The notes beneath the pieces were generated by a model, which worked only from the letters and a program-made list of their open reading frames with translations, made no database searches and was not told where the DNA came from. From IMG/VR virus record IMGVR_UViG_3300049020_000031, positions 1 to 64,000 of that record: a stretch of 64,000 bases of DNA. The stretch is one strand, 5' to 3'. The translations under genes were made by a program, and so were the position numbers. Within the stretch, counting starts at the first letter, position 1; the number at the start of each line of letters is the position of its first letter. The DNA is from a virus. This document shows, one piece after another, positions 2,897 to 55,747 of the stretch.

Positions 2897-3014
2897 GGGT
2901 TCCGTTCAGCAACTAATTTTCAATCAGCCTGTCGCGGGTTCGAGCCCCGCATAGTTCCTTGGGACTATTAGCTCAGTTGGGAGAGCAGCCGACTCATAAA
3001 AAAGTGAACCCGTT
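2897..3014 (+). ncRNA. permuted tRNA-like RNA, unit 3 (tRNA-CAU-like)
   Basis: outer helix GGGTTC/GAACCC; CAGCAA; T arm GCGGG-TTCGAGC-CCCGC; acceptor ATAGTTC-CTTG-GGACTAT; canonical D arm TAGCTCAGTTGGGAGAGC; GCCGA-CTCATAA. Confidence 0.87.
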
Positions 3015-3028
3015 ATTTTGAAGTTTTT

Positions 3029-3173
3029 TGGATCGATACAGCATACTTAAATGTATATCAAATTGAAATCATGAGGTTCGATTCCTCATAGCCCACCTGG
3101 TGGGTTTGGTCTAGTGGCAGGACATCATTCCCGAAAGGGGCAGCAGGCCGGGATGTTCCCGGAACGATCCAGT
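3029..3173 (+). ncRNA. permuted tRNA-like RNA, unit 4
   Basis: outer helix TGGATCG/CGATCCA; CAGCAT; T arm TGAGG-TTCGATT-CCTCA; acceptor hairpin AGCCCAC-CTG-GTGGGTT; D arm TGGTCTAGTGGCAGGAC; two extra hairpins. Confidence 0.82.
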
Positions 3174-3838: not shown

Positions 3839-5245
3839 ATGGATCTCGCAAACGCATTCAAGGCTCAAGAAACCACCACCACGAACGGTATGGCCGCTCT
3901 CCAGTCCACCATGGACTCTAACGTGGACCTGTTCTTCAAGATTGGTGCAAGCCGCGGAAAAAACATTGTTCCTCAGTTCACCGCAGCATTCGTGGAAAAT
4001 CGCGAACTGGCTCTGCGTATCGCGCTGTGGGCACGTGACGTTCGCGGTGGTGCAGGTGAACGTCAACTGTTCCGTGATGTTCTGAACTATCTGGAGGGTG
4101 TCGATCCTGATGCAGCTCGCTCCCTGATTCTCTCGACTCCTGAACTGGGTCGTTGGGATGATCTCCTGATTGTGAAGACTCCAGCTCTCCGCGACCTGGC
4201 GTTCAGCTTGATCAAGGCCGGTCTGGAATCCCAGAACGGTCTGTGTGCAAAGTGGATGCCACGTAAGGGCAAGGATGCTGAAGCTCTGCGAGCATACCTG
4301 GGATACAGCCCAAAGCGCTATCGCAAGACTTTGGTTACCTTGACGCAAGTCGTGGAAACCCAAATGTGTGCCAAGGATTGGGATAACATCAACTTCTCCC
4401 ACGTTCCTTCCGTGGCCGCTGGCCGTTACCGCAAGGCATTCAAGAAGAATGCCGAAGAAGCATACACGAAGTATGCTGAAGGTCTGGCTACCGGTGAAAC
4501 CAAGATCAACGCTGGTGCGGTGTTCCCTTATGATGTCCTGAAGGGCAACATGAATGGTTACCAACGAGCAACTCTGACCAAGGTTGAACGCGATGTGATC
4601 TTGGCTCAGTGGGCTGCACTGGAAAATGTGGTTGGTGATGCCAAGATGTTGCCTATGGTTGACGTGTCCGGCTCCATGAGCTGCCCAGCTGGTACCAAGA
4701 GCTCGGTGACTTGTATGGACGTGGCTGTGAGCTTGGGCCTGTATCTGGCTGAAAAGAACACTGGTTCGTTCCGTGATATGTTCATCACGTTCACGGAACA
4801 ACCAACTCTGTATGCTCTGAAGGGTAACGTGTTGGATAAGCTGGACCAGATGACTGGACAGGTTGGTTACAACACGAACCTGGAAGCCGCGTACGATGCG
4901 TTGCTGAAGGTCGCAGTAACCTCCAAGGTTGCTCAGGAAGACATGCCTGAGTACATTGTGATGTTGTCGGATATGCAGTTTGACGGTTGCACTGGTCGCC
5001 CAACGGCTTCCGCGATCGACATGATCCGTGACAAGTACAAGGCTGCTGGTTACACCGCTCCAAAGGTGGTGTTCTGGAACATCAACGCGCACGACAATGT
5101 GCCAGTGAAGTTCAATGATCTGGGCGTTGCTCTGATCAGCGGCTTCTCCCCAACGATCGTTAAGTCGGTCCTGACGGCACAGAAGTTCAGCCCACAAGGC
5201 ATCATGTTGGAAGCTGTGATGTCTGATCGCTACAAGCCACAGTAA
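3839..5245 (+). CDS. DUF2828-type Ro60/TROVE-like helical domain + vWA protein
   Basis: TTNG, DLFF, ARDVRGGAGER, GRWDDL, AKWMPR N-terminal motifs; MIDAS DVSGSM...NTN...SDMQFD, VFWN, SGFSP; strong codon bias. Confidence 0.88.
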   Translation: MDLANAFKAQETTTTNGMAALQSTMDSNVDLFFKIGASRGKNIVPQFTAAFVENRELALRIALWARDVRGGAGERQLFRDVLNYLEGVDPDAARSLILSTPELGRWDDLLIVKTPALRDLAFSLIKAGLESQNGLCAKWMPRKGKDAEALRAYLGYSPKRYRKTLVTLTQVVETQMCAKDWDNINFSHVPSVAAGRYRKAFKKNAEEAYTKYAEGLATGETKINAGAVFPYDVLKGNMNGYQRATLTKVERDVILAQWAALENVVGDAKMLPMVDVSGSMSCPAGTKSSVTCMDVAVSLGLYLAEKNTGSFRDMFITFTEQPTLYALKGNVLDKLDQMTGQVGYNTNLEAAYDALLKVAVTSKVAQEDMPEYIVMLSDMQFDGCTGRPTASAIDMIRDKYKAAGYTAPKVVFWNINAHDNVPVKFNDLGVALISGFSPTIVKSVLTAQKFSPQGIMLEAVMSDRYKPQ

Positions 5246-17665: not shown

Positions 17666-18916
17666 ATGAAGATTGTAACTTTGAACAATGGAGCTCGCCT
17701 CCTTTTCTCTGGACGGACGGACACCCAAGCAGTGGCCGTTTCTGTGTTTGTGAATACCGGTTCTGTCAATGAAACAGAGAAGCTGAATGGCATCAGTCAC
17801 TTCTTGGAACATATGGCTTTCAAGGGCACCCCCACCCGGGACTACACGAAAATCAGTAGCGATGTGGAACGTCTGGGTGCGAACATCAACGCTTATACGA
17901 GCCAACAAAGCACCGCCTACTATGTGACTGGTCTTGCCAAGCACACCGGTATCTTCGTTGACCTGTTGGCAGACATCTTGCTGAACAGTACCTTCCCAGA
18001 AGATCAGATCGAACAAGAGCGTTCGGTGATCATTCAGGAATACGAACAATATGAAGATGACCCCAGTTGGGTGATGTTTTATGGTTTGGCCTCAAAGATC
18101 AACAAGGCCAACGGTTGGAAGAACACCCCACTGGGCCCCAAGAAGAACATCAATTCGTTCGTCAAGGGTGACTTCCAGAAGTACATGAAGGATTTCTACA
18201 CGGCCCCCAACATCATCATCGGCATCGCGGGCAACGTGGATGAAGACGAAGCTATCAAGATGGTTGAAACTGCATTCCGTGATCTGCCACAAGGTACGTT
18301 CACTCCACGTATTGCATCCGTCTATGAGCCTGGTGAATTCCTGAAAACCAAGAAGACACAAAAGCAGACCAAACTGATCACCGTGTTTGGTGGCACTCAG
18401 GACACTCATCACCGAGATCATTACATCGAACAAATCGCATTCTCAGTTATGGGTGGTGGTATGAGTTCGCCACTGTTCAACGAAGTCAGGGAAAAGCGAG
18501 GTCTGGCTTATAGTGTGGGGAGTAGCCATTATTCAGGCCACAATCTGTTGGTCATCAATTGCGCGACTACCGAAGAACATTTGGATGAATACTTCAAGGC
18601 AACGGCAGATGTGATGAAGGGTATGGTCGACAAGGTCGCTGACATTGATCTGGAACGAGCCCAGAACTCTATCGCGGTGGCGTCAACTCGCATCCAGGAA
18701 AGCCGGTTTTCATTCCTGGAACAGAACGTAAGTGATTTGTTCAACTACAACCGGCCCACTGATTTTGATGCCGAGATTGAAAAGTACATGTCAATTACCG
18801 CCCAAGAAGTGAAGGACTGCTTTGCGAGAATCATTACCACACCACCATCCATTGCAATGGTTGGCAAATGCGGAACCAAGGATTATCTGCAGAAGTTCAC
18901 AGAAGCTTTGAAGTAA
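17666..18916 (+). CDS. M16 (pitrilysin/insulinase) family zinc peptidase
   Basis: inverted zincin HFLEH, NAYTS, downstream E, C-terminal REKRGLAY. Confidence 0.93.
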   Translation: MKIVTLNNGARLLFSGRTDTQAVAVSVFVNTGSVNETEKLNGISHFLEHMAFKGTPTRDYTKISSDVERLGANINAYTSQQSTAYYVTGLAKHTGIFVDLLADILLNSTFPEDQIEQERSVIIQEYEQYEDDPSWVMFYGLASKINKANGWKNTPLGPKKNINSFVKGDFQKYMKDFYTAPNIIIGIAGNVDEDEAIKMVETAFRDLPQGTFTPRIASVYEPGEFLKTKKTQKQTKLITVFGGTQDTHHRDHYIEQIAFSVMGGGMSSPLFNEVREKRGLAYSVGSSHYSGHNLLVINCATTEEHLDEYFKATADVMKGMVDKVADIDLERAQNSIAVASTRIQESRFSFLEQNVSDLFNYNRPTDFDAEIEKYMSITAQEVKDCFARIITTPPSIAMVGKCGTKDYLQKFTEALK

Positions 18917-19022: not shown

Positions 19023-19430
19023 TTATGCGGCTTGCATACGTGGCTTGCGACCACGCTTCGCTGGTGCAGCCTGGGCCTTCGACACCACTTCGTCCATTTC
19101 ACGCCACAGGCGAGCGGTTGGAACGACCTTGCTGGGCTTGCCTTCCACGGCGTCAGCTGCGATCCAGCGATAGCTGGTACCGGCCATTGCCATGTGGGTG
19201 CCACGAGACATCTGGGTGGATTCAAGGAATTGGGAAGCAAATTTCCCGGTCATCGTAATACCCAGCCCGCCACGAGTGCGAGGTGACAGTGGGAAAATAC
19301 CACGGCCGGTTTCTTTGTCGGTGGCCTTGAACAGAACACGACCCGGACCTTCAATCTTGATCTTGACCGCATGGGCCTTGTCAAAGAATTGAGCTGCTGC
19401 TGGCTTGTTGAAAGTGAGATTCAATTGCAT
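19023..19430 (-). CDS. hypothetical protein with basic tail (paralog of 33429..33869)
   Basis: 135 aa; ends KRGRKPR; RBS GGAG. Confidence 0.75.
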   Translation of the reverse strand: MQLNLTFNKPAAAQFFDKAHAVKIKIEGPGRVLFKATDKETGRGIFPLSPRTRGGLGITMTGKFASQFLESTQMSRGTHMAMAGTSYRWIAADAVEGKPSKVVPTARLWREMDEVVSKAQAAPAKRGRKPRMQAA

Positions 19431-35524: not shown

Positions 35525-36862
35525 TCAACGTTTTTTCATTTGCTGTTCTGCCACACCGAACGCCGTATAGTCAAACTTTAGATCGACAGCTTGTTTTGAA
35601 TCAAGAGCATTTGTGACATCATAGATGAATCTAGATCTCATGGTGAGCATCAGGGAGTTGAGTTCGATTTCTTTAAATTCTGGCTCATGGGTCATCACAA
35701 CCAACAGATCACTATCGACCACACTGTCGTAAGGGTCGAAATATTCGATGCCACGACTATGGGTCATTTGAGCACCATTGGGATCGTAGTATCGAACTTC
35801 AAAATTTCTAGATGAAAACCATTGAGCAACTTTCATTGATGGTGACTCTCTGGTATCGGCAGAACCAGCTTTGAATCCCATCCCCCAGAAGGTAATGGTT
35901 TTGCCCTTGTTTCCGTTCTTCTCCAGAATCCGTTTCACTTCACTAATTATGTGATGTGCGGCATTGTTGTTGCTTGAAACTATTTGATTCACCATACTCT
36001 CATGCATTGCATTGTTGGCGATTTGTGACCCAAGGGCATGTACATCCTTGGGTAGACAATAACCACCAAAACCAGGACCATGTTTCAAATATTGATCTCC
36101 GATTCGTGGATCAATGGAAATTCCAGTCACGACATCACGAATGTCAGCATCGTAGTTTTCACACAGTTGTGCCAACTCATTCACCATAGCGATACGAGCT
36201 GCTAAAAAGGTGTTCGCAGCCAGCTTGGTTATGACAGCGGAATTGAAACTCATGGGGATGATTGGTGCCCCATTTGCCAGCACCTCGATGACATCGACTA
36301 CATGGGGTTCAAGTGAGTCAAGGGTGCTGGTGGTGGTCCCTACCACCAGCCTATGGGGATGGTTAGCATCATGTAGTGCCTTACCTTCCTGAAAGAATTC
36401 CGGGAGTACCACTAGGCTGGCGAATGTTTTCTCAGGCTCCTTTAGGATATTCTGAATCGTATCCACGGCCATGGTAGAACGAACGAATACATAATGTGGG
36501 GAAATTTCTGTTTCCTTGAGGCCATACCTACAGCTATTGAATACGGATGAGATGGCATAAGAATCAAGATGTGTGCGGACTGACTGTGGTGTACCAACAC
36601 AGATGAACACCAACATACTCTCGTCCATTTCTTCAGGCCAGAAATTATTTTTGTGATCTCTACAGATCTCCAGAGACCCGTCAGAGATAAGTTCTGAAAC
36701 CGCCTCCTTGACTCCAGGCTCATCGATGTGGCAGTCACCATTCAAGAGTTTGCTGATGACCGTTTTGTTCGTGTCAAACCCGATGACTTTGTATCCAGAT
36801 TTGGCGAGGGTGATAGCGGTCGCCAATCCTGAATAACCCAGACCAAACACAGCCGCTCTCAT
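35525..36862 (-). CDS. ugd: UDP-glucose/GDP-mannose dehydrogenase family protein
   Basis: GLGYSG, ICVGTP, RST, PEFFQEG, KLAAN, GPGFGGYCLPKD, FK..SAD.RESP. Confidence 0.93.
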   Translation of the reverse strand: MRAAVFGLGYSGLATAITLAKSGYKVIGFDTNKTVISKLLNGDCHIDEPGVKEAVSELISDGSLEICRDHKNNFWPEEMDESMLVFICVGTPQSVRTHLDSYAISSVFNSCRYGLKETEISPHYVFVRSTMAVDTIQNILKEPEKTFASLVVLPEFFQEGKALHDANHPHRLVVGTTTSTLDSLEPHVVDVIEVLANGAPIIPMSFNSAVITKLAANTFLAARIAMVNELAQLCENYDADIRDVVTGISIDPRIGDQYLKHGPGFGGYCLPKDVHALGSQIANNAMHESMVNQIVSSNNNAAHHIISEVKRILEKNGNKGKTITFWGMGFKAGSADTRESPSMKVAQWFSSRNFEVRYYDPNGAQMTHSRGIEYFDPYDSVVDSDLLVVMTHEPEFKEIELNSLMLTMRSRFIYDVTNALDSKQAVDLKFDYTAFGVAEQQMKKR

Positions 36863-37812
36863 TTATGATAGTCCTTATACCATTCCACGAAATTTTTCAA
36901 ACCTTCCGCCATCGAAGTTGTCTTGCAATAGCCGATTCTGGATTGTAACTTATCAACAGACGATCTGGTGATGGAAGATTCATATACTGGCAAATCTATT
37001 TCAATAATTTCTGGTTTCTTTCCCAGTATTTCACCAATCGTCATGATCATCGACTCGACGGAAATAGATCTGCCAGATCCCAGATTGTAGATTTCGTGCG
37101 TACCGGGAACTGCCTTATCCAAGATACCAACTACCATATCAACCAGATCATCCACATATGTGAAGTCCCGTCTAGTCATTATACCACGGAGTAGAACTGG
37201 CTTGTCTTCCATGATAGCCTTGGTGAATAGCCAATATGCCATATCAGGTCGCCCCCATGGTCCGTATGCTGTGAAAAACCGCATACCTACCATAGTCCCA
37301 CCATAACTTTGGTGATGCATGTCGGCCTGTTGTTCGTTCGTGAGTTTACTCAAAGCGTAATTGCTACTGGGGAAAGTTTGATCATGTTCTTTTACTGAGC
37401 TGGTACCCGCACCGTAAACACTTGAGCTACTGGCGTAGAAGATTCTTTCTACGCCATATTTCTGGCAGGCGTCAAGTACCGCTGCCGTCCCCACGACGTT
37501 TGTTTTATACGTTCTGGCTGGATCAACCATTGATGCCGTAACTCCAGGTTGAGCGGCTAGGTGAATTACGGTCTTGATATCGTTTTCCGAAAACAACCTA
37601 TTGAGGTAATCCTGATTCGTGATGTCAGCGTAGAAGAATTTTACCTTACCACCGGTCATCAAAGAATTGAGACGATCTCGTTTTAGCTGCGGTGCGTAAT
37701 AGTTGTTCAAACTATCGACAAGAACCAGGTCCTCACCCATTGCTAGAAGTCGCTCCGAGACTGCTCTACCGATGAAACCTGCCGCCCCAGTGATTAGAAT
37801 TTTACCGTTCAT
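36859..37812 (-). CDS. NAD-dependent epimerase (UDP-glucuronate 4-epimerase-like)
   Basis: TGAAGFIG, HLAAQPGV, ASSSSVYG, YALSK, RFFTAYGPWGRPDMA, RDFTYVDD. Confidence 0.93.
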   Translation of the reverse strand: MNGKILITGAAGFIGRAVSERLLAMGEDLVLVDSLNNYYAPQLKRDRLNSLMTGGKVKFFYADITNQDYLNRLFSENDIKTVIHLAAQPGVTASMVDPARTYKTNVVGTAAVLDACQKYGVERIFYASSSSVYGAGTSSVKEHDQTFPSSNYALSKLTNEQQADMHHQSYGGTMVGMRFFTAYGPWGRPDMAYWLFTKAIMEDKPVLLRGIMTRRDFTYVDDLVDMVVGILDKAVPGTHEIYNLGSGRSISVESMIMTIGEILGKKPEIIEIDLPVYESSITRSSVDKLQSRIGYCKTTSMAEGLKNFVEWYKDYHK

Positions 37813-37933
37813 TTTTATGCCATTAGTTACCTGGAATTGTACGTTTGGCGTCAATAAATCACAATAAACATCAGATATACCGGTTTAATCTTCGAGGAAA
37901 CTCCCGTAAATAAAGGAAACTTCATCGGGGATT

Positions 37934-39245: not shown

Positions 39246-39605
39246 TCAATCTAATGATCCATTACCACCAAACATCAACTTAAACTTGATGGCATCTGAG
39301 GAATCCAGAAACCATATAGTCTTCGTCACATCAAGTCGAGTATTGGTGGTGTGGGAGTACCATCTGATGATTTTGAATGGTTGACATTCACTTAGGAAAA
39401 CTAACACGTCCTCGGAAAAATCAATGATCATCATCAATTCTTTCAACGAATAAGTTCGTATCCAGGTGATAGTTTTTGGAGGGAGTTCACTCCAATCACC
39501 GTTGAAATTGAACTTGTTCTCTTCAGTGATGTGAACGCATGATGCGCCAACCAGTTGTGGGCGAATAAGGAAAAGAACTTCTTTGCAGATACGAATAATA
39601 TTCAT
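39246..39605 (-). CDS. hypothetical protein (FKL-tail family)
   Basis: FLSECQPF...FLDSSDAIKFKLMFGG. Confidence 0.7.
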   Translation of the reverse strand: MNIIRICKEVLFLIRPQLVGASCVHITEENKFNFNGDWSELPPKTITWIRTYSLKELMMIIDFSEDVLVFLSECQPFKIIRWYSHTTNTRLDVTKTIWFLDSSDAIKFKLMFGGNGSLD

Positions 39606-39629
39606 ATGTGCATGATAGCACCATTCCAA

Positions 39630-39785
39630 ATAGGAGAGCCCCTAATGGCGTTAGGGGCTCAACGTAGCCTTCACAAAAGAGGGGGTAGCTGTCCCTCTTT
39701 GTCTCGCGTGCTACCGCGAGTTTGACACCTGCATCGCTATAACATAACGGTCCTAAGGTGAAACTTTTTGGTTATTGCTAACCTT
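39630..39785 (-). ncRNA. candidate structured small RNA with 23S rRNA H69/H70-complementary segment
   Basis: TAAATA box (39791-39796, minus), four hairpins ending in GAGCCCCTAA/TTAGGGGCTC, no ORF; plus strand ATAACGGTCCTAAGGT at 39744-39759. Confidence 0.6.
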
Positions 39786-39796
39786 CAATCTATTTA

Positions 39797-40213
39797 TTAT
39801 CCAATGTAGGTAATCTTGTCATAAACCGGCCCCTTGTCGTCACCACTGAATGCCAATTTGAAACAGATCAGATCATGCATTGAGATGAAATACAATGGAT
39901 AGACAATTGCGAAGCAATCCCTTGCGTGGCCGGATATCTTAATTTCTTCAGAGGACGAAGGCTTGACATCATACTGTTTTCCCATCTCATATCCCTGACA
40001 AGACTCAAGGAAATCATGTATTTCTGGTTTCCATCCATACTCCAATCCATATTCCAAATTCATACCGTTATGATATGAATTGAAAACTCGGTTGCCATTC
40101 TGATAATTGATGTAGTCGTGTTGATAGATGGGATAAAGATGACCAAACACTCTGGGAAGAAGGCGAAACAACCGTAGATGAATAGCTGCCTTGATCTCTA
40201 GGAATGTTTTCAT
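39797..40213 (-). CDS. hypothetical protein (FKL-tail family)
   Basis: KPEIHDFLESCQGY...FISMHDLICFKLAFSG. Confidence 0.7.
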   Translation of the reverse strand: MKTFLEIKAAIHLRLFRLLPRVFGHLYPIYQHDYINYQNGNRVFNSYHNGMNLEYGLEYGWKPEIHDFLESCQGYEMGKQYDVKPSSSEEIKISGHARDCFAIVYPLYFISMHDLICFKLAFSGDDKGPVYDKITYIG

Positions 40214-42803: not shown

Positions 42804-42881
42804 ATAGGATCCTTGAAATTTCGACTGGCAAAACACTTCCAGTTAACTCGTGTTATTTATACGCAGACGAAAGTTCGTGGC

Positions 42882-47207: not shown

Positions 47208-47294
47208 ATAAACCAGGTTGGTGGCTCAGTTTACTCTGAGCCACCTTTCGAGTTGCCAATATAGCATAAATATTCCAAATCTTTGGAATATGGC

Positions 47295-48446
47295 ATGTCT
47301 TATTATCTCGATGACGCAATTGTTTTTCACAACACCCTAAACCCCAAGCTGTGGGATAGAAATGGAGCAATGCATTCCAATATTTTGCAGGGTTTGCGGA
47401 ATATGGCGGCTGAATTCCAGGACTTCTTGGGTCTAGAAGAATTGGATGTTCTGGATATAACCATATCTGGGTCAAACGCGGCATACACGTACACACCACA
47501 TTCTGACATCGATCTGCACTTGGTTGTGAAAGTTCCAGAGGATGCCAAAACTCTGTACAAGGAGTTGTTCGATGCCAAGAAGAACCTCTACAACTTGGTG
47601 CATGATCAGAAGATCAAAGGATTTGACGTAGAATTCTACGTGCAGAATGACAGCGATCCTGTCCAATCAATGGGTATTTTCTCAGTGATGCGCAATCGTT
47701 GGATCAGTGTGCCAAAGAAAATAAAAGCCACGATTGACGATCAAAGTGTGAAGAGTAAGGTAGCCGATTTCAAGAGTAGAATCCAAGAAGCCTTGAACTC
47801 AGATGATTACTTGATGGCTCAGAAAGCATGGGACGACTTTAAGAACATGCGACGTAGTGGATTGGAACGTGGTGGTGAGTTCTCTCCTGAAAATCTGGCT
47901 TTCAAGATCTTGCGAACACAGGGTTACCAGGACTCACTATATGATCACATCAAGAGTTTGAAAGACAGAGAACTAAGTGTTGAAAGCCTGCAGGAAACAC
48001 CTACCACTCCCTCAATTTCATATCAAGAACTTGATGGTTCCACGTTCTATTATCAGTACATTGGTGGTGATGATACTGCCAGAAAGAGACTGAAGTACCT
48101 GAGCCAGGGATATGATCTTCAACATGAAACCAATCTGATTGCTCTTCAGGGCGATAAGGTCATTGGTGCCGTGGGCCTTCAGAAATCACCATACGAGGAA
48201 AATGTTCTATGGATGCTTTTCGTATCAGTAGATCCAGAATTCCAAGGCAAGGGCGTGGCTAAGAATTTGGTTCAAATGATCTTTGAATACGCGAAGAAGA
48301 ACGATCTCCGTCTTAGAATCAGTTCATACTCAGATATGGGTGAGAAATATTTGAAGAAAGTATTCGATCACTACCAGGAAGTCTATAGTGATGTGCAGGT
48401 CAAGGACTCCACCGACCATCACCAATTCGATCAAGATATCAAATAA
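47295..48446 (+). CDS. Pol-beta superfamily nucleotidyltransferase fused to GNAT acetyltransferase
   Basis: ISGSNAAYTYTPHSDIDLH...VEFY; C-terminal VSVDPEFQGKGVA acetyl-CoA motif; TAAATA at 47267. Confidence 0.85.
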   Translation: MSYYLDDAIVFHNTLNPKLWDRNGAMHSNILQGLRNMAAEFQDFLGLEELDVLDITISGSNAAYTYTPHSDIDLHLVVKVPEDAKTLYKELFDAKKNLYNLVHDQKIKGFDVEFYVQNDSDPVQSMGIFSVMRNRWISVPKKIKATIDDQSVKSKVADFKSRIQEALNSDDYLMAQKAWDDFKNMRRSGLERGGEFSPENLAFKILRTQGYQDSLYDHIKSLKDRELSVESLQETPTTPSISYQELDGSTFYYQYIGGDDTARKRLKYLSQGYDLQHETNLIALQGDKVIGAVGLQKSPYEENVLWMLFVSVDPEFQGKGVAKNLVQMIFEYAKKNDLRLRISSYSDMGEKYLKKVFDHYQEVYSDVQVKDSTDHHQFDQDIK

Positions 48447-54712: not shown

Positions 54713-55747
54713 TCAGACGTCGCTGACCTTCAATTTATTTACCGTCATGGGGCCGCGCTGCCAATGATGGGCTGATGGTTGAACGTGATCTTTTCTCACA
54801 AACTTGGCAACACTTCCGCGAAATTGAGAATAAGCAAATTCATCAGCCAATCGAACCACATAACCTTCACAAGTTTTGGAACTCTTGGTTTTCCACAGTG
54901 CTCTGATTGCCTTTTCATCCCAGATACCATCGTACCACACGGGCACTTGTTCAATATCAAGAAGTTGGAAGAATTGAACAGTGGTATCCCAATCCAAGCA
55001 AACGTTCCGTTCATTCCAAATGCTGTAGCCCATAACGTATGAATTCAGGGAATCATACTCAATGGAATGTTTGGCGTACAGGTTTTCCAAACAGATTCGC
55101 CAATATTCCGGAATATCACCACATCGTTTCGCCCACTCGGCCTTCATCCAGTTTCTGGAGGGGTGATTCTTGCTGTCAACGCTTCGGGCATGGCAATAGT
55201 CCTGATACCATGTGGTATTTTCACCATCCATCTTCTCGGTGACTATGACTCTTCGACCTTCGAACTGACTCACGGATTCAATCATACGATCATCCGATGT
55301 CATGTTTTCCGACCATGGGAGATGGTAAGTTCTTGGATATTTGACGTGATGGGTGAAGTCTTTCAGGAATCCACCAGAATTCAGAATCTTCTGAACCGAC
55401 TCATCAAAGAACAGATCACCCTTGAGCCTTTGACCATTTGGCATGACTGGGTTTCCCCACTTGTCATATTCTTGGTCTGGGTATAGGTGTGGGGGAATTG
55501 GAAACTTGGTGATGCCACAGGCGTCACGAACTTGACTCAACGAAATCGTGGTCTGTTCACAGAGGATGTGATGTTCTTCACAAACTGATGCACCGTTCTC
55601 CAGATAGTAACCACCGTCTGGCCACAGTTTTCGTTCCATTATGTGATGGGCATCCTTTGCGTCTTTGTCACAGAAGACGCATTTGTGATTGTCGCGAGAG
55701 AAAACACCTTCTCTGAAGTCGTCGCGTGATAAGAGTTTGAATGCCAT
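54713..55747 (-). CDS. HNH-like domain fused to ATP-dependent RNA ligase
   Basis: N-terminal RDNHKCVFC..AHH..NGASVCEEHH; ligase KYPRT, TEKMDGEN, EGYVVR, AKFVR. Confidence 0.87.
   Translation of the reverse strand: MAFKLLSRDDFREGVFSRDNHKCVFCDKDAKDAHHIMERKLWPDGGYYLENGASVCEEHHILCEQTTISLSQVRDACGITKFPIPPHLYPDQEYDKWGNPVMPNGQRLKGDLFFDESVQKILNSGGFLKDFTHHVKYPRTYHLPWSENMTSDDRMIESVSQFEGRRVIVTEKMDGENTTWYQDYCHARSVDSKNHPSRNWMKAEWAKRCGDIPEYWRICLENLYAKHSIEYDSLNSYVMGYSIWNERNVCLDWDTTVQFFQLLDIEQVPVWYDGIWDEKAIRALWKTKSSKTCEGYVVRLADEFAYSQFRGSVAKFVRKDHVQPSAHHWQRGPMTVNKLKVSDV

Follow-up and report, generated by a model that had tools for sequence, protein, structure and literature searches.

A structured intergenic RNA of an uncultured phage, probably a divergent member of a large uncatalogued small-RNA family with complementarity to rRNA

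The window analyzed here, meaning the whole 64,000-nt stretch of DNA (positions 1 to 64,000 of IMG/VR virus record IMGVR_UViG_3300049020_000031), contains a 187-nt gap between two minus-strand genes. Both flanking ORFs are orphans with no relatives in PHROGs, Pfam, or IMG/VR; the upstream ORF, compared with 5.8 billion proteins, matched only itself, and a larger neighboring gene gave a single irrelevant 21-residue match. Searches of the neighboring genes turned up no nuclease or integrase domain, and the site contains no tRNA or tmRNA. As predicted, the gap holds no credible ORF, the only listed frames being a 56-aa plus-strand TTG frame and a TTG extension of the downstream gene. This intergenic region is a real structured RNA. 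The minus strand from 39626 to 39796 would encode a molecule of ~135 to 170 nt, with the following parts and neighbors:

39797 to 40213, minus strand: upstream orphan ORF, 138 aa (88-aa version on record); the RNA lies in or past its 3′ end.
39791 to 39798, minus strand: AATAAATA box, a possible late-type promoter judging by sequence, overlapping the end of the upstream ORF.
39770 to 39783, minus strand: small phage-specific 5′ hairpin, GGUUA-GCAA-UAACC, from folding; the family alignment has no counterpart.
39726 to 39760, minus strand: P1, the conserved module, a CACCU/AGGUG stem around UAGGACCG plus an inner hairpin CGUUAU-GUU-AUAGCG, from folding and alignment to family P1 by covariance model R2.
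39744 to 39759, minus strand: ACCUUAGGACCGUUAU, a 16-nt perfect complement of 23S rRNA 1916 to 1931.
39748 to 39758, minus strand: core CCUUAGGACCG, conserved in the family.
39703 to 39720, minus strand: P2′, CUCGCG-GUAGCA-CGCGAG, from folding, in place of family P2; R2 treats it as a 26-nt insertion.
39676 to 39700, minus strand: P3′, AAAGAGGG-ACAGCUACC-CCCUCUUU, from folding and R2 alignment to family P3.
39661 to 39675, minus strand: linker UGUGAAGGCUACGUU, poorly conserved, aligned by R2 to the family 3′ tail AAGUGAGC.
39626 to 39660, minus strand: P4, a 10-bp hairpin GAGCCCCUAA-CGCCA-UUAGGGGCUC followed by UCCUAUUUGG, terminator-like by terminator scan.
39246 to 39605, minus strand: downstream orphan ORF, 119 aa from the ATG at 39605, from the ORF list and protein searches.

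The four-hairpin fold that had been proposed for the gap was recovered with every hairpin where it had been placed, including the P3′ stem AAGAGGG/CCCTCTT (39677 to 39699) and the 10-bp P4 hairpin (39636 to 39660). The minus-strand RNA folded to −62.1 kcal/mol, compared with −48.0 ± 4.5 kcal/mol for shuffles (z = −3.13), and the plus strand to −58.8 (z = −2.95). Three terminator-like sites were found versus 0.4 expected in shuffles, and a terminator-like hairpin with a U-rich tail lies at the 3′ side of the RNA. The loops GUAGC and GCUAC are both present as predicted, and a contact between them in the folded RNA is plausible; the family counterpart of this contact is pairing of the P3 loop with the 3′ tail.

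The claim of a late promoter ahead of the RNA fared less well. TAAATA does lie on the minus strand at 39796 to 39791, immediately past the stop TAA of the upstream ORF (39799 to 39797), but the box here is AATAAATA and not TATAAATA, the first T-A being missing, and the call is weak. TATAAATA marks the likely late promoters of this genome, occurring five times, always intergenic and in four of five cases 26 to 58 nt before an ORF; AATAAATA also stands 8 nt ahead of the RNA in elements L148 to L150. The window RNA may derive from the 3′ end of a late operon starting near 42861, or else be transcribed from its own AATAAATA box; in either case, its end would be at the P4 hairpin and U-rich tract.

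The plus strand at 39740 to 39759 reads TAACATAACGGTCCTAAGGT, within which ATAACGGTCCTAAGGT (39744 to 39759) equals Escherichia coli 23S rRNA 1916 to 1931 at 16 of 16 positions; the longer predicted match of 20/21 was confirmed with a single gap at U1915 of 23S. The expected number of such 16-mer matches per window is 0.14 (~128,000 positions × 4,566 rRNA nt/4^16), in agreement with the rough chance first estimated, and other 8- to 10-mer rRNA complements within the element are as frequent as chance predicts (12 observed versus ~13 expected). The 141.5-kb genome has a single copy of the element and no complement of the core CCUUAGGACCG elsewhere; at ~14796, a 10-nt stretch matches the GGACCGUUAU end.

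To place the element among other phages, we used a pattern made of the P3 loop and tail only, excluding the bases of the P1 motif. This pattern retrieved >119 IMG/VR loci, representing 103 distinct elements, and a second pattern (P1 + P2) added 42 further elements. The P1 hairpin with core CCUUAGGACCG recurs in >140 distinct elements of uncultured phages, often very large ones. In the 103 elements retrieved without P1, CCUUAGGACC was exact in 93 and one base off in the other 10; CCTTAGGACC was likewise exact in 93 and differed by one base in 10, bearing out the predicted conservation of ACCTTAGGACCG in phage intergenic regions. Pattern matches in coding sequence (L014, L015, L074, L081, L093, L101, L107, L118, and L135) were set aside as chance matches.

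Most copies are three-hairpin RNAs of 85 to 110 nt with strong covariation. A covariance model, R1, detected 91 members (E = 1e-9 to 1e-26). Pairs form in 87.7% of cells versus 34 to 43% with slid partners, the covariation score was 0.80 versus 0.04 to 0.13, and double changes were seen at 16/17 pairs, in counts whose members are not phylogenetically independent. Helices contain 86 G.U pairs versus 41 A.C pairs. Flanking ORFs are co-oriented with the element in 92/97 cases upstream and 91/103 downstream. Covarying stems together with G.U pairs thus indicate selection at the RNA level on one strand and, since the gene-sense strand is the one that carries the elements, the RNA has the antisense orientation to 23S, as the original prediction had held.

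The elements are tightly packed against their neighbors. The upstream stop lies ≤14 nt from the loop in 82/97 elements, the loop's own UAG serves as that stop codon in 21/97, and the downstream start follows a median of 23 nt past the element. On the 3′ side, an ATAAATA box was found in 33/105 cases, a sigma70-like promoter in 15/105, and a U-run in 23/105, with clear terminators in several. Most members lack their own promoter and are located at the 3′ end of the transcript of the upstream gene. Genomes carry one or two copies; in a 352-kb phage, the second copy has lost the P1 motif. The 3′ tail AAGUGAGC is invariant in 132/134 elements, and the P3 loop pairs with it in 103/103 sequences (UUCGCU:AGUGAG); the variant CUCGCU (L153, L167, L170) improves this loop-tail pairing and breaks one 23S pair. 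The P1 and P2 loops have no partner within the RNA. P1 also occurs apart from the canonical arrangement, next to a plain terminator in L004 to L008 and, in L151, within a phage tRNA array between tRNA-Tyr and tRNA-Glu. This portability fits a trans-acting seed hairpin.

The window RNA is probably a divergent member of this large uncatalogued phage small-RNA family. Its 20-nt P1 sequence CACCUUAGGACCGUUAUGUU is identical to that of L010, L011, and L147 to L156, and like other members it occupies an intergenic position at the end of a transcription unit, runs in the gene-sense direction, and is low in copy number. The remaining hairpins differ. Where the family has a P2 loop GGCUGCU closed by C-G, the window has GUAGCA, which is complementary to its own P3′ loop. 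Family P3 loops fall into types a (UCGCUACC), b (ACGCCAUU), c, and d. The P3′ loop ACAGCUACC retains GCUACC from the family P3 loop AUUCGCUACC, a complement of 23S 1929 to 1934, and the type b motif ACGCCAUU, a complement of 23S 1969 to 1976, is present but in the next hairpin, within the P4 loop UAACGCCAUUA. The same motif is found in family A (L002, L012, L013) and in P3 of family C elements L180, L189, L190, L196, and L205. In place of the invariant tail the window has UGUGAAGGCUACGUUGAGC, in which only scattered letters align.

The narrow model R1 missed the element (local 13-nt match only; 6.1 bits; E = 8.8). With the broad model R2, the top match in the 128 kb of window searched was full length at 39661 to 39769 on the minus strand, with P1 and P3 aligned (16.6 bits; E = 0.04, a borderline value from a short calibration that makes E-values rough). 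Family A scored in a similar range under R2 (18.7 to 22.3 bits). A weak R1/R2 match at 19331 to 19425 lies inside a minus-strand ORF and was rejected.

The family is supported by covariation, has >140 distinct members so far confined to uncultured phages, and is new to Rfam 15 and to the literature searched. Rfam 15, searched at both gathering and E-value thresholds, gave no family for the window or canonical members, the best local matches being to miRNA or FinP models (E = 0.05 to 10). A blastn search of the window locus against 50,697 phage records gave no match, nor did one of a canonical member against cultured phages. Patterns with the window's own loop combination returned only chance matches in IMG/VR (L137 to L140) and none in metagenomes. 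In the nearest named relatives by DNA polymerase (Phosso, Atu_ph07, Vibrio 2.275.O, and PBECO4), R1 and a 10-mer search yielded no credible match. Among cellular genomes, a pattern covering long RNA forms only gave one match, on a Haliscomenobacter metagenome-assembled contig. Likenesses to SRP RNA, RNase P RNA, 5S rRNA, the sarcin-ricin loop, and an anticodon loop were 6- to 7-mers, at chance level, and were discarded.

We quantified rRNA complementarity of the conserved loops against all E. coli rRNA, which stood in for host rRNA. The P1 loop matched at 11/11 positions (P ~0.001, within a range of 1e-3 to 4e-5), the P2 loop at 9/9 (P ~0.018), and the P3 loop at 9/10 (P ~0.03 to 0.05), while sense-orientation controls gave 6- to 7-mers at most. 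Family-wide, P1 complements 23S 1920 to 1930; P3 types complement 23S 1929 to 1937 or 1966 to 1976; and P2, in most members, complements 16S 519 to 527 (the 530 loop). Clustering was then evaluated conditional on the P1 site, within a 91-nt stretch (23S 1900 to 1990) picked after the P1 match was known: P3a matched as a 9-mer (P = 2.6e-4), P3b as an 8-mer (P = 1.2e-3), and P3c as a 6-mer (P = 0.05), and conditional P values across the conserved loops ranged from 1e-3 to 1e-5. P3 types c and d and the tail AAGUGAGC had no significant complement in E. coli rRNA. Beyond the P1 core, the 5′ flank adds ≥3 nt to the 23S complement in 20% of elements (1.6% expected) and the 3′ flank adds ≥4 nt in 8.6% (0.4% expected), far more often than chance, with the direction of extension varying by sublineage. 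Some loop variants are incompatible with rRNA pairing (CCCUAGGACC in five elements, GGCUACUG, and GGCUUCUG).

These results refine the H69/H70 complementarity first noted in the window. The part that stands family-wide is 11 of the 16 nt (23S 1920 to 1930, the H69 3′ strand and linker), whereas the part facing the H69 loop (UUAU, 1916 to 1919) occurs in few lineages only. That the complementarity is directed at 23S is strengthened by other conserved loops matching the same 23S neighborhood and the 16S 530 loop.

We regard it as very likely that the conserved RNA module is real, and we lean slightly toward a function through rRNA pairing. What defines the superfamily is a 5′ hairpin, P1, that exposes CCUUAGGACCG and is succeeded by more hairpins whose loops are invariant; these loops are probably antisense seeds for host rRNA. 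In the main family, P1 would target 23S 1920 to 1930, P3 23S 1929 to 1937, and P2 16S 519 to 527. In the window RNA, P1 would pair with 23S 1916 to 1931 (the H69 3′ strand plus the linker to H70), the P3′ loop with 1929 to 1934, and the P4 loop with 1969 to 1976; the P2′ loop (GGUAGC, identical to 23S 1929 to 1934) may keep the anti-23S P3′ loop covered before it encounters its target. In mature ribosomes, the target segments are base paired or at the subunit interface. Access to them is therefore uncertain, and binding to nascent 23S or free subunits is proposed because these segments are paired or buried in the mature 70S. The bound RNA would hold domain IV (H69 to H71, the intersubunit bridge region) in a nonnative state, and host ribosome assembly or subunit joining would be disturbed or reprogrammed. 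Tentatively, the small RNAs of large phages might act as a multipoint antisense clamp on both strands of 23S H70, the H69 3′ strand, and the 16S 530 loop, capturing, blocking, or remodeling host subunits or their precursors, with the window RNA as a 23S-only variant of such a clamp. The explanation as a whole, a phage RNA with loops as antisense seeds against host rRNA, appears to us evenly poised between right and wrong. The data show the RNA module and its family, their fold and strand, and the complementarity with its statistics; transcription, pairing in vivo, and a consequence for the ribosome are all three steps that we infer.

Invariant loops could instead serve the RNA's own fold or a protein partner, as in an element for self-cleavage or processing, a scaffold for an RNP, or a cap that protects the 3′ end of the upstream mRNA, with rRNA complementarity incidental. 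We consider this unlikely, although several features suit it. Ribozymes and aptamers typically combine invariant loop and junction nucleotides with a pseudoknot, and here the P3 loop pairs with the tail in every sequence; the elements end transcription units, with the stop close to the loop and the next promoter often following; some loop variants break rRNA pairing; and the tail is invariant yet has no significant rRNA complement. However, a single 60-nt patch of 23S is complemented by three to four distinct loop motifs (conditional P = 2.6e-4 and 1.2e-3, atop 1e-3 to 4e-5 for P1), the sense-orientation controls are empty, flank extensions favor longer 23S pairing, and P1 and P2 loops have no internal partner. 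In addition, no neighboring protein gene is conserved across the family, and no known ribozyme or riboswitch model matched.

The tight stop spacing, the use of the loop UAG as a stop, and the short distance to the next start also raise the idea of a cis-acting tether, in which rRNA of just-terminated ribosomes is paired and subunits are kept on the mRNA for the next cistron. The TURBS of caliciviruses and influenza B, which acts through complementarity to 18S rRNA, is likewise a viral RNA motif complementary to conserved rRNA beside a stop codon (PMC6393290, PMC3035654). TURBS is a eukaryotic signal that relies on 18S alone, sits within the upstream ORF, and has a strictly cis mode of action; in contrast, the phage element has loops against both 23S and 16S, which would itself suit a tether, is often at a transcript end, and also occurs in a tRNA array, where there are no ORFs to couple. 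Promoters, U-runs, and terminators between element and gene mean that the downstream gene is often a separate transcript, the window element is followed by a terminator-like hairpin and has a stop-to-loop gap of 38 nt, and dense gene packing alone explains the short distances. A tether thus seems distinctly improbable.

Selection could in principle act on DNA, at a homing-endonuclease target or mimic of the I-CeuI type or at a recombination site common to the phage and rDNA. The I-CeuI recognition sequence listed in PMC2790883 does include the 16-mer, and CCTNAGG is palindromic. Nevertheless, the full site TAACTATAACGGTCCTAAGGTAGCGAA is absent (16 contiguous of ~26 bp, one gap upstream, and no 3′ AGCGAA half), the neighbors carry no nuclease or integrase domain, and covarying stems, G.U use, and strong strand bias relative to genes point to RNA, leaving a DNA-level site highly improbable. 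The suggestion that the RNA is a decoy for rRNA-site nucleases does not fit either, since the transcribed strand is antisense to rRNA and so no mimic, and since the I-CeuI site is present for 16 of ~26 bp only. Last, a terminator hairpin cluster bearing a chance 16-mer match, to which the ~0.14 expected matches per window, the excess of terminator-like sites, and the chance rate of other complements lend some color, is very unlikely, a chance match being ruled out by conservation of the motif in other phages: the same hairpin, with 17 to 20 identical nt, recurs in unrelated phages and always intergenically, the core is found in >140 elements with covarying stems, and the motif in the P4 loop recurs as well.

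Known phage contributions include tRNAs, tmRNA, ribosomal proteins, and translation factors, but no phage RNA is known to pair with rRNA itself. The literature searched described none that complements H69 or the 530 loop, or that contains the motif in this sense. The present data suggest that phages may produce RNAs that base pair with ribosomal RNA of the host, the invariant loops reading as complements of rRNA segments that rank among the most conserved and most central to function (the 530 loop and the bridge region of H69-H70-H71). Real pairing would represent a new viral route to control of the host ribosome and a natural case of antisense targeting of rRNA, with evolution-tested sequences reaching these sites. 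Even should the function lie elsewhere, this large new class of structured phage RNA calls for an explanation, and models R1 and R2 make the family directly testable.

Among known systems, ribosome-associated ncRNAs (rancRNAs), including a Haloferax Val-tRNA fragment and yeast rancRNA_18, are similar in that small RNAs have the ribosome itself, not mRNA, as the proposed target (PMC8938821, PMC5711459, PMC8632108). These are cellular and mostly fragments of other RNAs, and several loops serving as long perfect rRNA complements are not reported for them, whereas the phage RNA is a dedicated gene with a covarying three- or four-hairpin fold, for which ribosome binding is predicted. Base-pairing sRNAs, including 3′-UTR-derived sRNAs and phage anti-sRNAs, share the 5′ seed hairpin, the 3′ terminator, and the position at an operon 3′ end (PMC4104026, PMC12197685). 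They have mRNA or sRNA targets in one host lineage and a narrow distribution; in contrast, the seed of the phage family is invariant across very different phages and matches universal rRNA sequence. The tRNA cluster of phage T4 encodes small stable RNAs of unknown function that are cotranscribed with tRNAs; they too are phage encoded, and the P1 module of L151 likewise lies among tRNAs.

The original prediction placed here a structured intergenic RNA antisense to helices H69 and H70 of 23S rRNA, and the match reported with it was reproduced: plus-strand positions 39744 to 39759 (ATAACGGTCCTAAGGT) are identical over 16 nt to E. coli 23S rRNA 1916-1931, extending to 20 of 21 nt, beginning at 23S 1911, when one gap is allowed. 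All four proposed hairpins lie in the gap separating two ORFs:

39797-40213, minus strand, upstream flanking ORF, orphan
39246-39605, minus strand, downstream flanking ORF, orphan

Compared to shuffled sequences, RNA from this gap folds stably on both the minus strand (-62.1 kcal/mol; z = -3.13) and the plus strand (-58.8 kcal/mol; z = -2.95). The chance of such a 16-mer is ~0.14 per window, in agreement with the earlier estimate; sequence alone is therefore unable to settle the question.

Conservation of the motif in phage intergenic regions, proposed originally as a check, was borne out. A 17-mer query with its last base changed, excluding matches to rRNA genes, identified 11 loci in IMG/VR that fall into four unrelated groups, and at all 11 the motif was intergenic, on the gene-sense strand, antisense to 23S, and within a hairpin with a CACC/GGUG-type closing stem. 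An independent search pattern, ATTCGCTAC...AAGTGAGC, which includes none of the bases of the motif in the first hairpin (P1), matched more than 119 loci representing at least 103 distinct elements. Among the 103 listed, every one carried a P1-type hairpin 40 to 70 nt upstream, with CCUUAGGACC exact in 93 and altered by one change in 10. A further query, combining the P1 core with the P2 loop, added at least 42 distinct elements, and the 20-mer common to the window and locus L010 was present in ten metagenome contigs, each time in a structured-RNA context. Family size is thus a lower bound, the true family being larger than the elements counted.

These elements constitute a conserved, structured RNA family of 83 to 112 nt, arranged on the gene-sense strand as follows:

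Leader, AAGAAC
P1, variable stem enclosing CCUUAGGACCG, inner hairpin optional
P2, stem with loop GGCUGCU
P3, two-tier stem with loop of ~9 nt
Tail, AAGUGAGC

A narrow covariance model (R1), built from 15 minimal members, detected 91 members among 100 loci (E 1e-9 to 1e-26). In the alignment of these members, 87.7% of cells pair, compared to 34-43% once the partners were slid; covariation scored 0.80 versus 0.04-0.13, and 16 of 17 base pairs showed changes on both sides. The excess of G.U over A.C in helices (86 versus 41), together with the co-orientation of neighboring ORFs (92/97 and 91/103), indicates that the gene-sense strand is the RNA. No matching family was present in Rfam 15, and the family was not found by blastn against 50,697 cultured-phage records or in the four named jumbo phages with the closest DNA polymerases. 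GTDB species genomes, searched with a pattern covering long forms only, gave one match (L146:4107-4202; NZ_JBBAKG010000001.1, a 183-kb contig of a Haliscomenobacter sp. MAG); this contig may represent a phage sequence assigned to a Bacteroidota MAG during binning, which would give a possible hint of the host. Genomes carry one or two copies, with two in a 352,754-bp jumbo phage with terminal repeats (IMGVR_UViG_3300023184_000024; L145:1501-1582 and L143), the second of which has lost the CCUUAGGACC loop while retaining its P2 loop, P3 loop (UCGCUAC), and tail.

We compared the loops to E. coli 16S, 23S, and 5S rRNA, standing in for the rRNA of the hosts, with P values calculated against random or shuffled loops.

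Complementarity of family parts to E. coli rRNA
P1 loop, CCUUAGGACCG: 23S 1920-1930 (11/11), P ~0.001
P2 loop, CGGCUGCUG: 16S 519-527 (9/9), P ~0.018
P3 type a loop, (A)UUCGCUACC: 23S 1929-1937 (9/10), P 0.03-0.05
Tail, AAGUGAGC: no rRNA target, not significant

In the sense orientation, the same loops gave only 6- to 7-mers against E. coli rRNA. P3 loops fell into several types, counted among the matches listed in a set chosen without regard to P3.

P3 loop types
Type a, at least 109 elements
Type b, at least 5 elements: ACGCCAUU(CG), complement of 23S 1966-1976 over 8 to 11 nt
Type c, at least 18 elements: 6-mer against 23S 1963-1968
Type d, at least 2 elements: no complement

Given the P1 site, the chance of a complement falling inside 23S 1900-1990, a neighborhood picked after that first match, was 2.6e-4 (type a), 1.2e-3 (type b), and 0.05 (type c). 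Complementarity of the loops to a compact 23S region and to the 16S 530 loop is highly nonrandom. Read from the sequence, 23S 1934-1941 and 1968-1975 are able to pair around the H71 hairpin; if so, P3 types a and b would target opposite strands of a single helix, read here as H70. Extension of the 23S complement into the sequence flanking the P1 core is likewise more frequent than expected by chance (5' CUA in 19/93 elements, 3' UUAU(A) in 8/93; family members are related, so these, like the other family percentages, are nonindependent counts), and P1 matches as a whole measure 10 to 16 nt across elements, the longest being that of the window. Since the window RNA also contains GCUACC (against 23S 1929-1934) and ACGCCAUU (against 1969-1976), three of the four loops are directed at a single patch of domain IV. 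No complement of the family core was found elsewhere in the phage genome; a single stretch of 10 nt, at ~14796, matches the 16-mer at its 3' end.

We lean somewhat toward rRNA pairing as the function of this RNA. The stretch from H69, which forms intersubunit bridge B2a, to H71 lies along the subunit interface, with most target bases paired or buried in 70S ribosomes. Once transcribed, the RNA would therefore be expected to pair through its loops with nascent 23S or free subunits, and the likely effect would be to disturb the folding of domain IV or the joining of subunits. Alternatively, the element could be driven by its fold or by a protein (a ribozyme, an RNP, or a 3'-end cap), the rRNA complementarity being incidental. 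Loop-tail pairing, a tail that is invariant yet lacks an rRNA match, and a few loop variants incompatible with rRNA pairing all favor this alternative; the clustering statistics weigh against it.

The relation of the window element to the family is mixed. R1 gave just a 13-nt local match (E = 8.8). In contrast, the broad model R2, built from all 91 members, ranked minus-strand positions 39661-39769 first in the whole window, both strands considered, with a full-length match of 16.6 bits (E = 0.04, the E values of both models being rough); another divergent branch, family A (L002, L003, L012, and L013), scored 18.7 to 22.3 bits. In the R2 alignment, the first hairpin of the window aligns with P1 and the third with P3, leaving the second as an insertion. 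The window P1 shares 20 consecutive nt with L010, L011, and L147-L156, and GCUACC is retained in the third loop of the window element. In the fourth hairpin, the loop UAACGCCAUUA contains ACGCCAUU, which is also the inner-hairpin loop of family A and the P3 loop of L180, L189, L190, L196, and L205. The family P2 loop and tail are absent. These features suggest a distant relative, which has in common with the family its overall order and two of its loop modules. As a phage RNA, the element is very probably real and under selection. The proposed GUAGC/GCUAC kissing contact is plausible, since the second loop with its closing G (GGUAGC) is the partner of the third; GGUAGC is also identical to 23S 1929-1934, and the second loop could mask the third by such a contact.

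Family elements are flanked by diverse genes. The distance from the upstream stop codon to the loop is at most 14 nt in 82/97 elements, and the loop's own UAG serves as that stop codon in 21/97. Downstream (n = 105) we found an ATAAATA box in 33, a sigma70-like promoter in 15, and a U-run in 23, while only 4 elements had an upstream ATAAATA box. Together, these positions indicate that most copies end a transcription unit. In 20 of 102 loci (L009, L019, L029, L035, L043, and ~15 more), a sigma70-like promoter and then a gene of ~86 aa (phrog_12534/phrog_639, "transcriptional regulator"; 60-80% identity between phages) lie directly downstream of the RNA. P1 also occurs with a strong terminator and no other hairpins (L004-L008) and, in L151 (JAANMU010000689.1, 400-780), at 513-532 on the minus strand, where its neighbors, tRNA-Tyr on one side and tRNA-Glu on the other, share its strand and belong to an eight-gene phage tRNA array; tRNA processing could release P1 from this array as a small stable RNA. 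P1 thus behaves as a portable module. L004:3381-3453 (identical in L005-L008) gave subthreshold Rfam matches to FinP (30.9 bits) and the traJ 5' UTR (32.3 bits), probably mere two-hairpin resemblance. The position beside stop codons would suit a cis tether for terminating ribosomes, similar to TURBS, but promoters and terminators that come after the elements, and the P1 copy in a tRNA array, fit it poorly. Chance matching and a homing site acting at the DNA level are both very unlikely explanations.

The window element occurs once in its 141.5-kb phage genome (a single contig), where all genes from ~42836 down to 38627 are on the minus strand. A terminator scan scored the 10-bp hairpin (39660-39636), together with the UCCUAUUUGG that follows it, as terminator-like; in the simplest reading, the element is predicted to form the 3' end of a transcript from a late operon. 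The late box claimed for it is present as AATAAATA at 39791-39798, overlapping the upstream stop codon, and a putative promoter of its own is only possible. The related box TATAAATA occurs five times in the genome, always intergenic and in 4/5 cases 26 to 58 nt ahead of an ATG ORF:

19996, plus strand, TATAAATA
22922, plus strand, TATAAATA
42861, minus strand, TATAAATA, same strand as the gene run
78916, minus strand, TATAAATA
129795, minus strand, TATAAATA

These sites are probably T4-type late promoters; TAAATA overall is underrepresented (54 observed versus 119 expected). Elsewhere in the window, a DUF2828/DUF7788 gene (3839-5245, plus strand) is next to a weak Rfam tRNA match (2962-3095, plus strand; 29.2 bits), and further genes encode an RNA ligase (54713-55747, minus strand), a nucleotidyltransferase-GNAT fusion (47283-48446, plus strand), an M16 peptidase (17666-18916, plus strand), and a UDP-glucose dehydrogenase plus nucleotide-sugar epimerase (35525-37854, minus strand).
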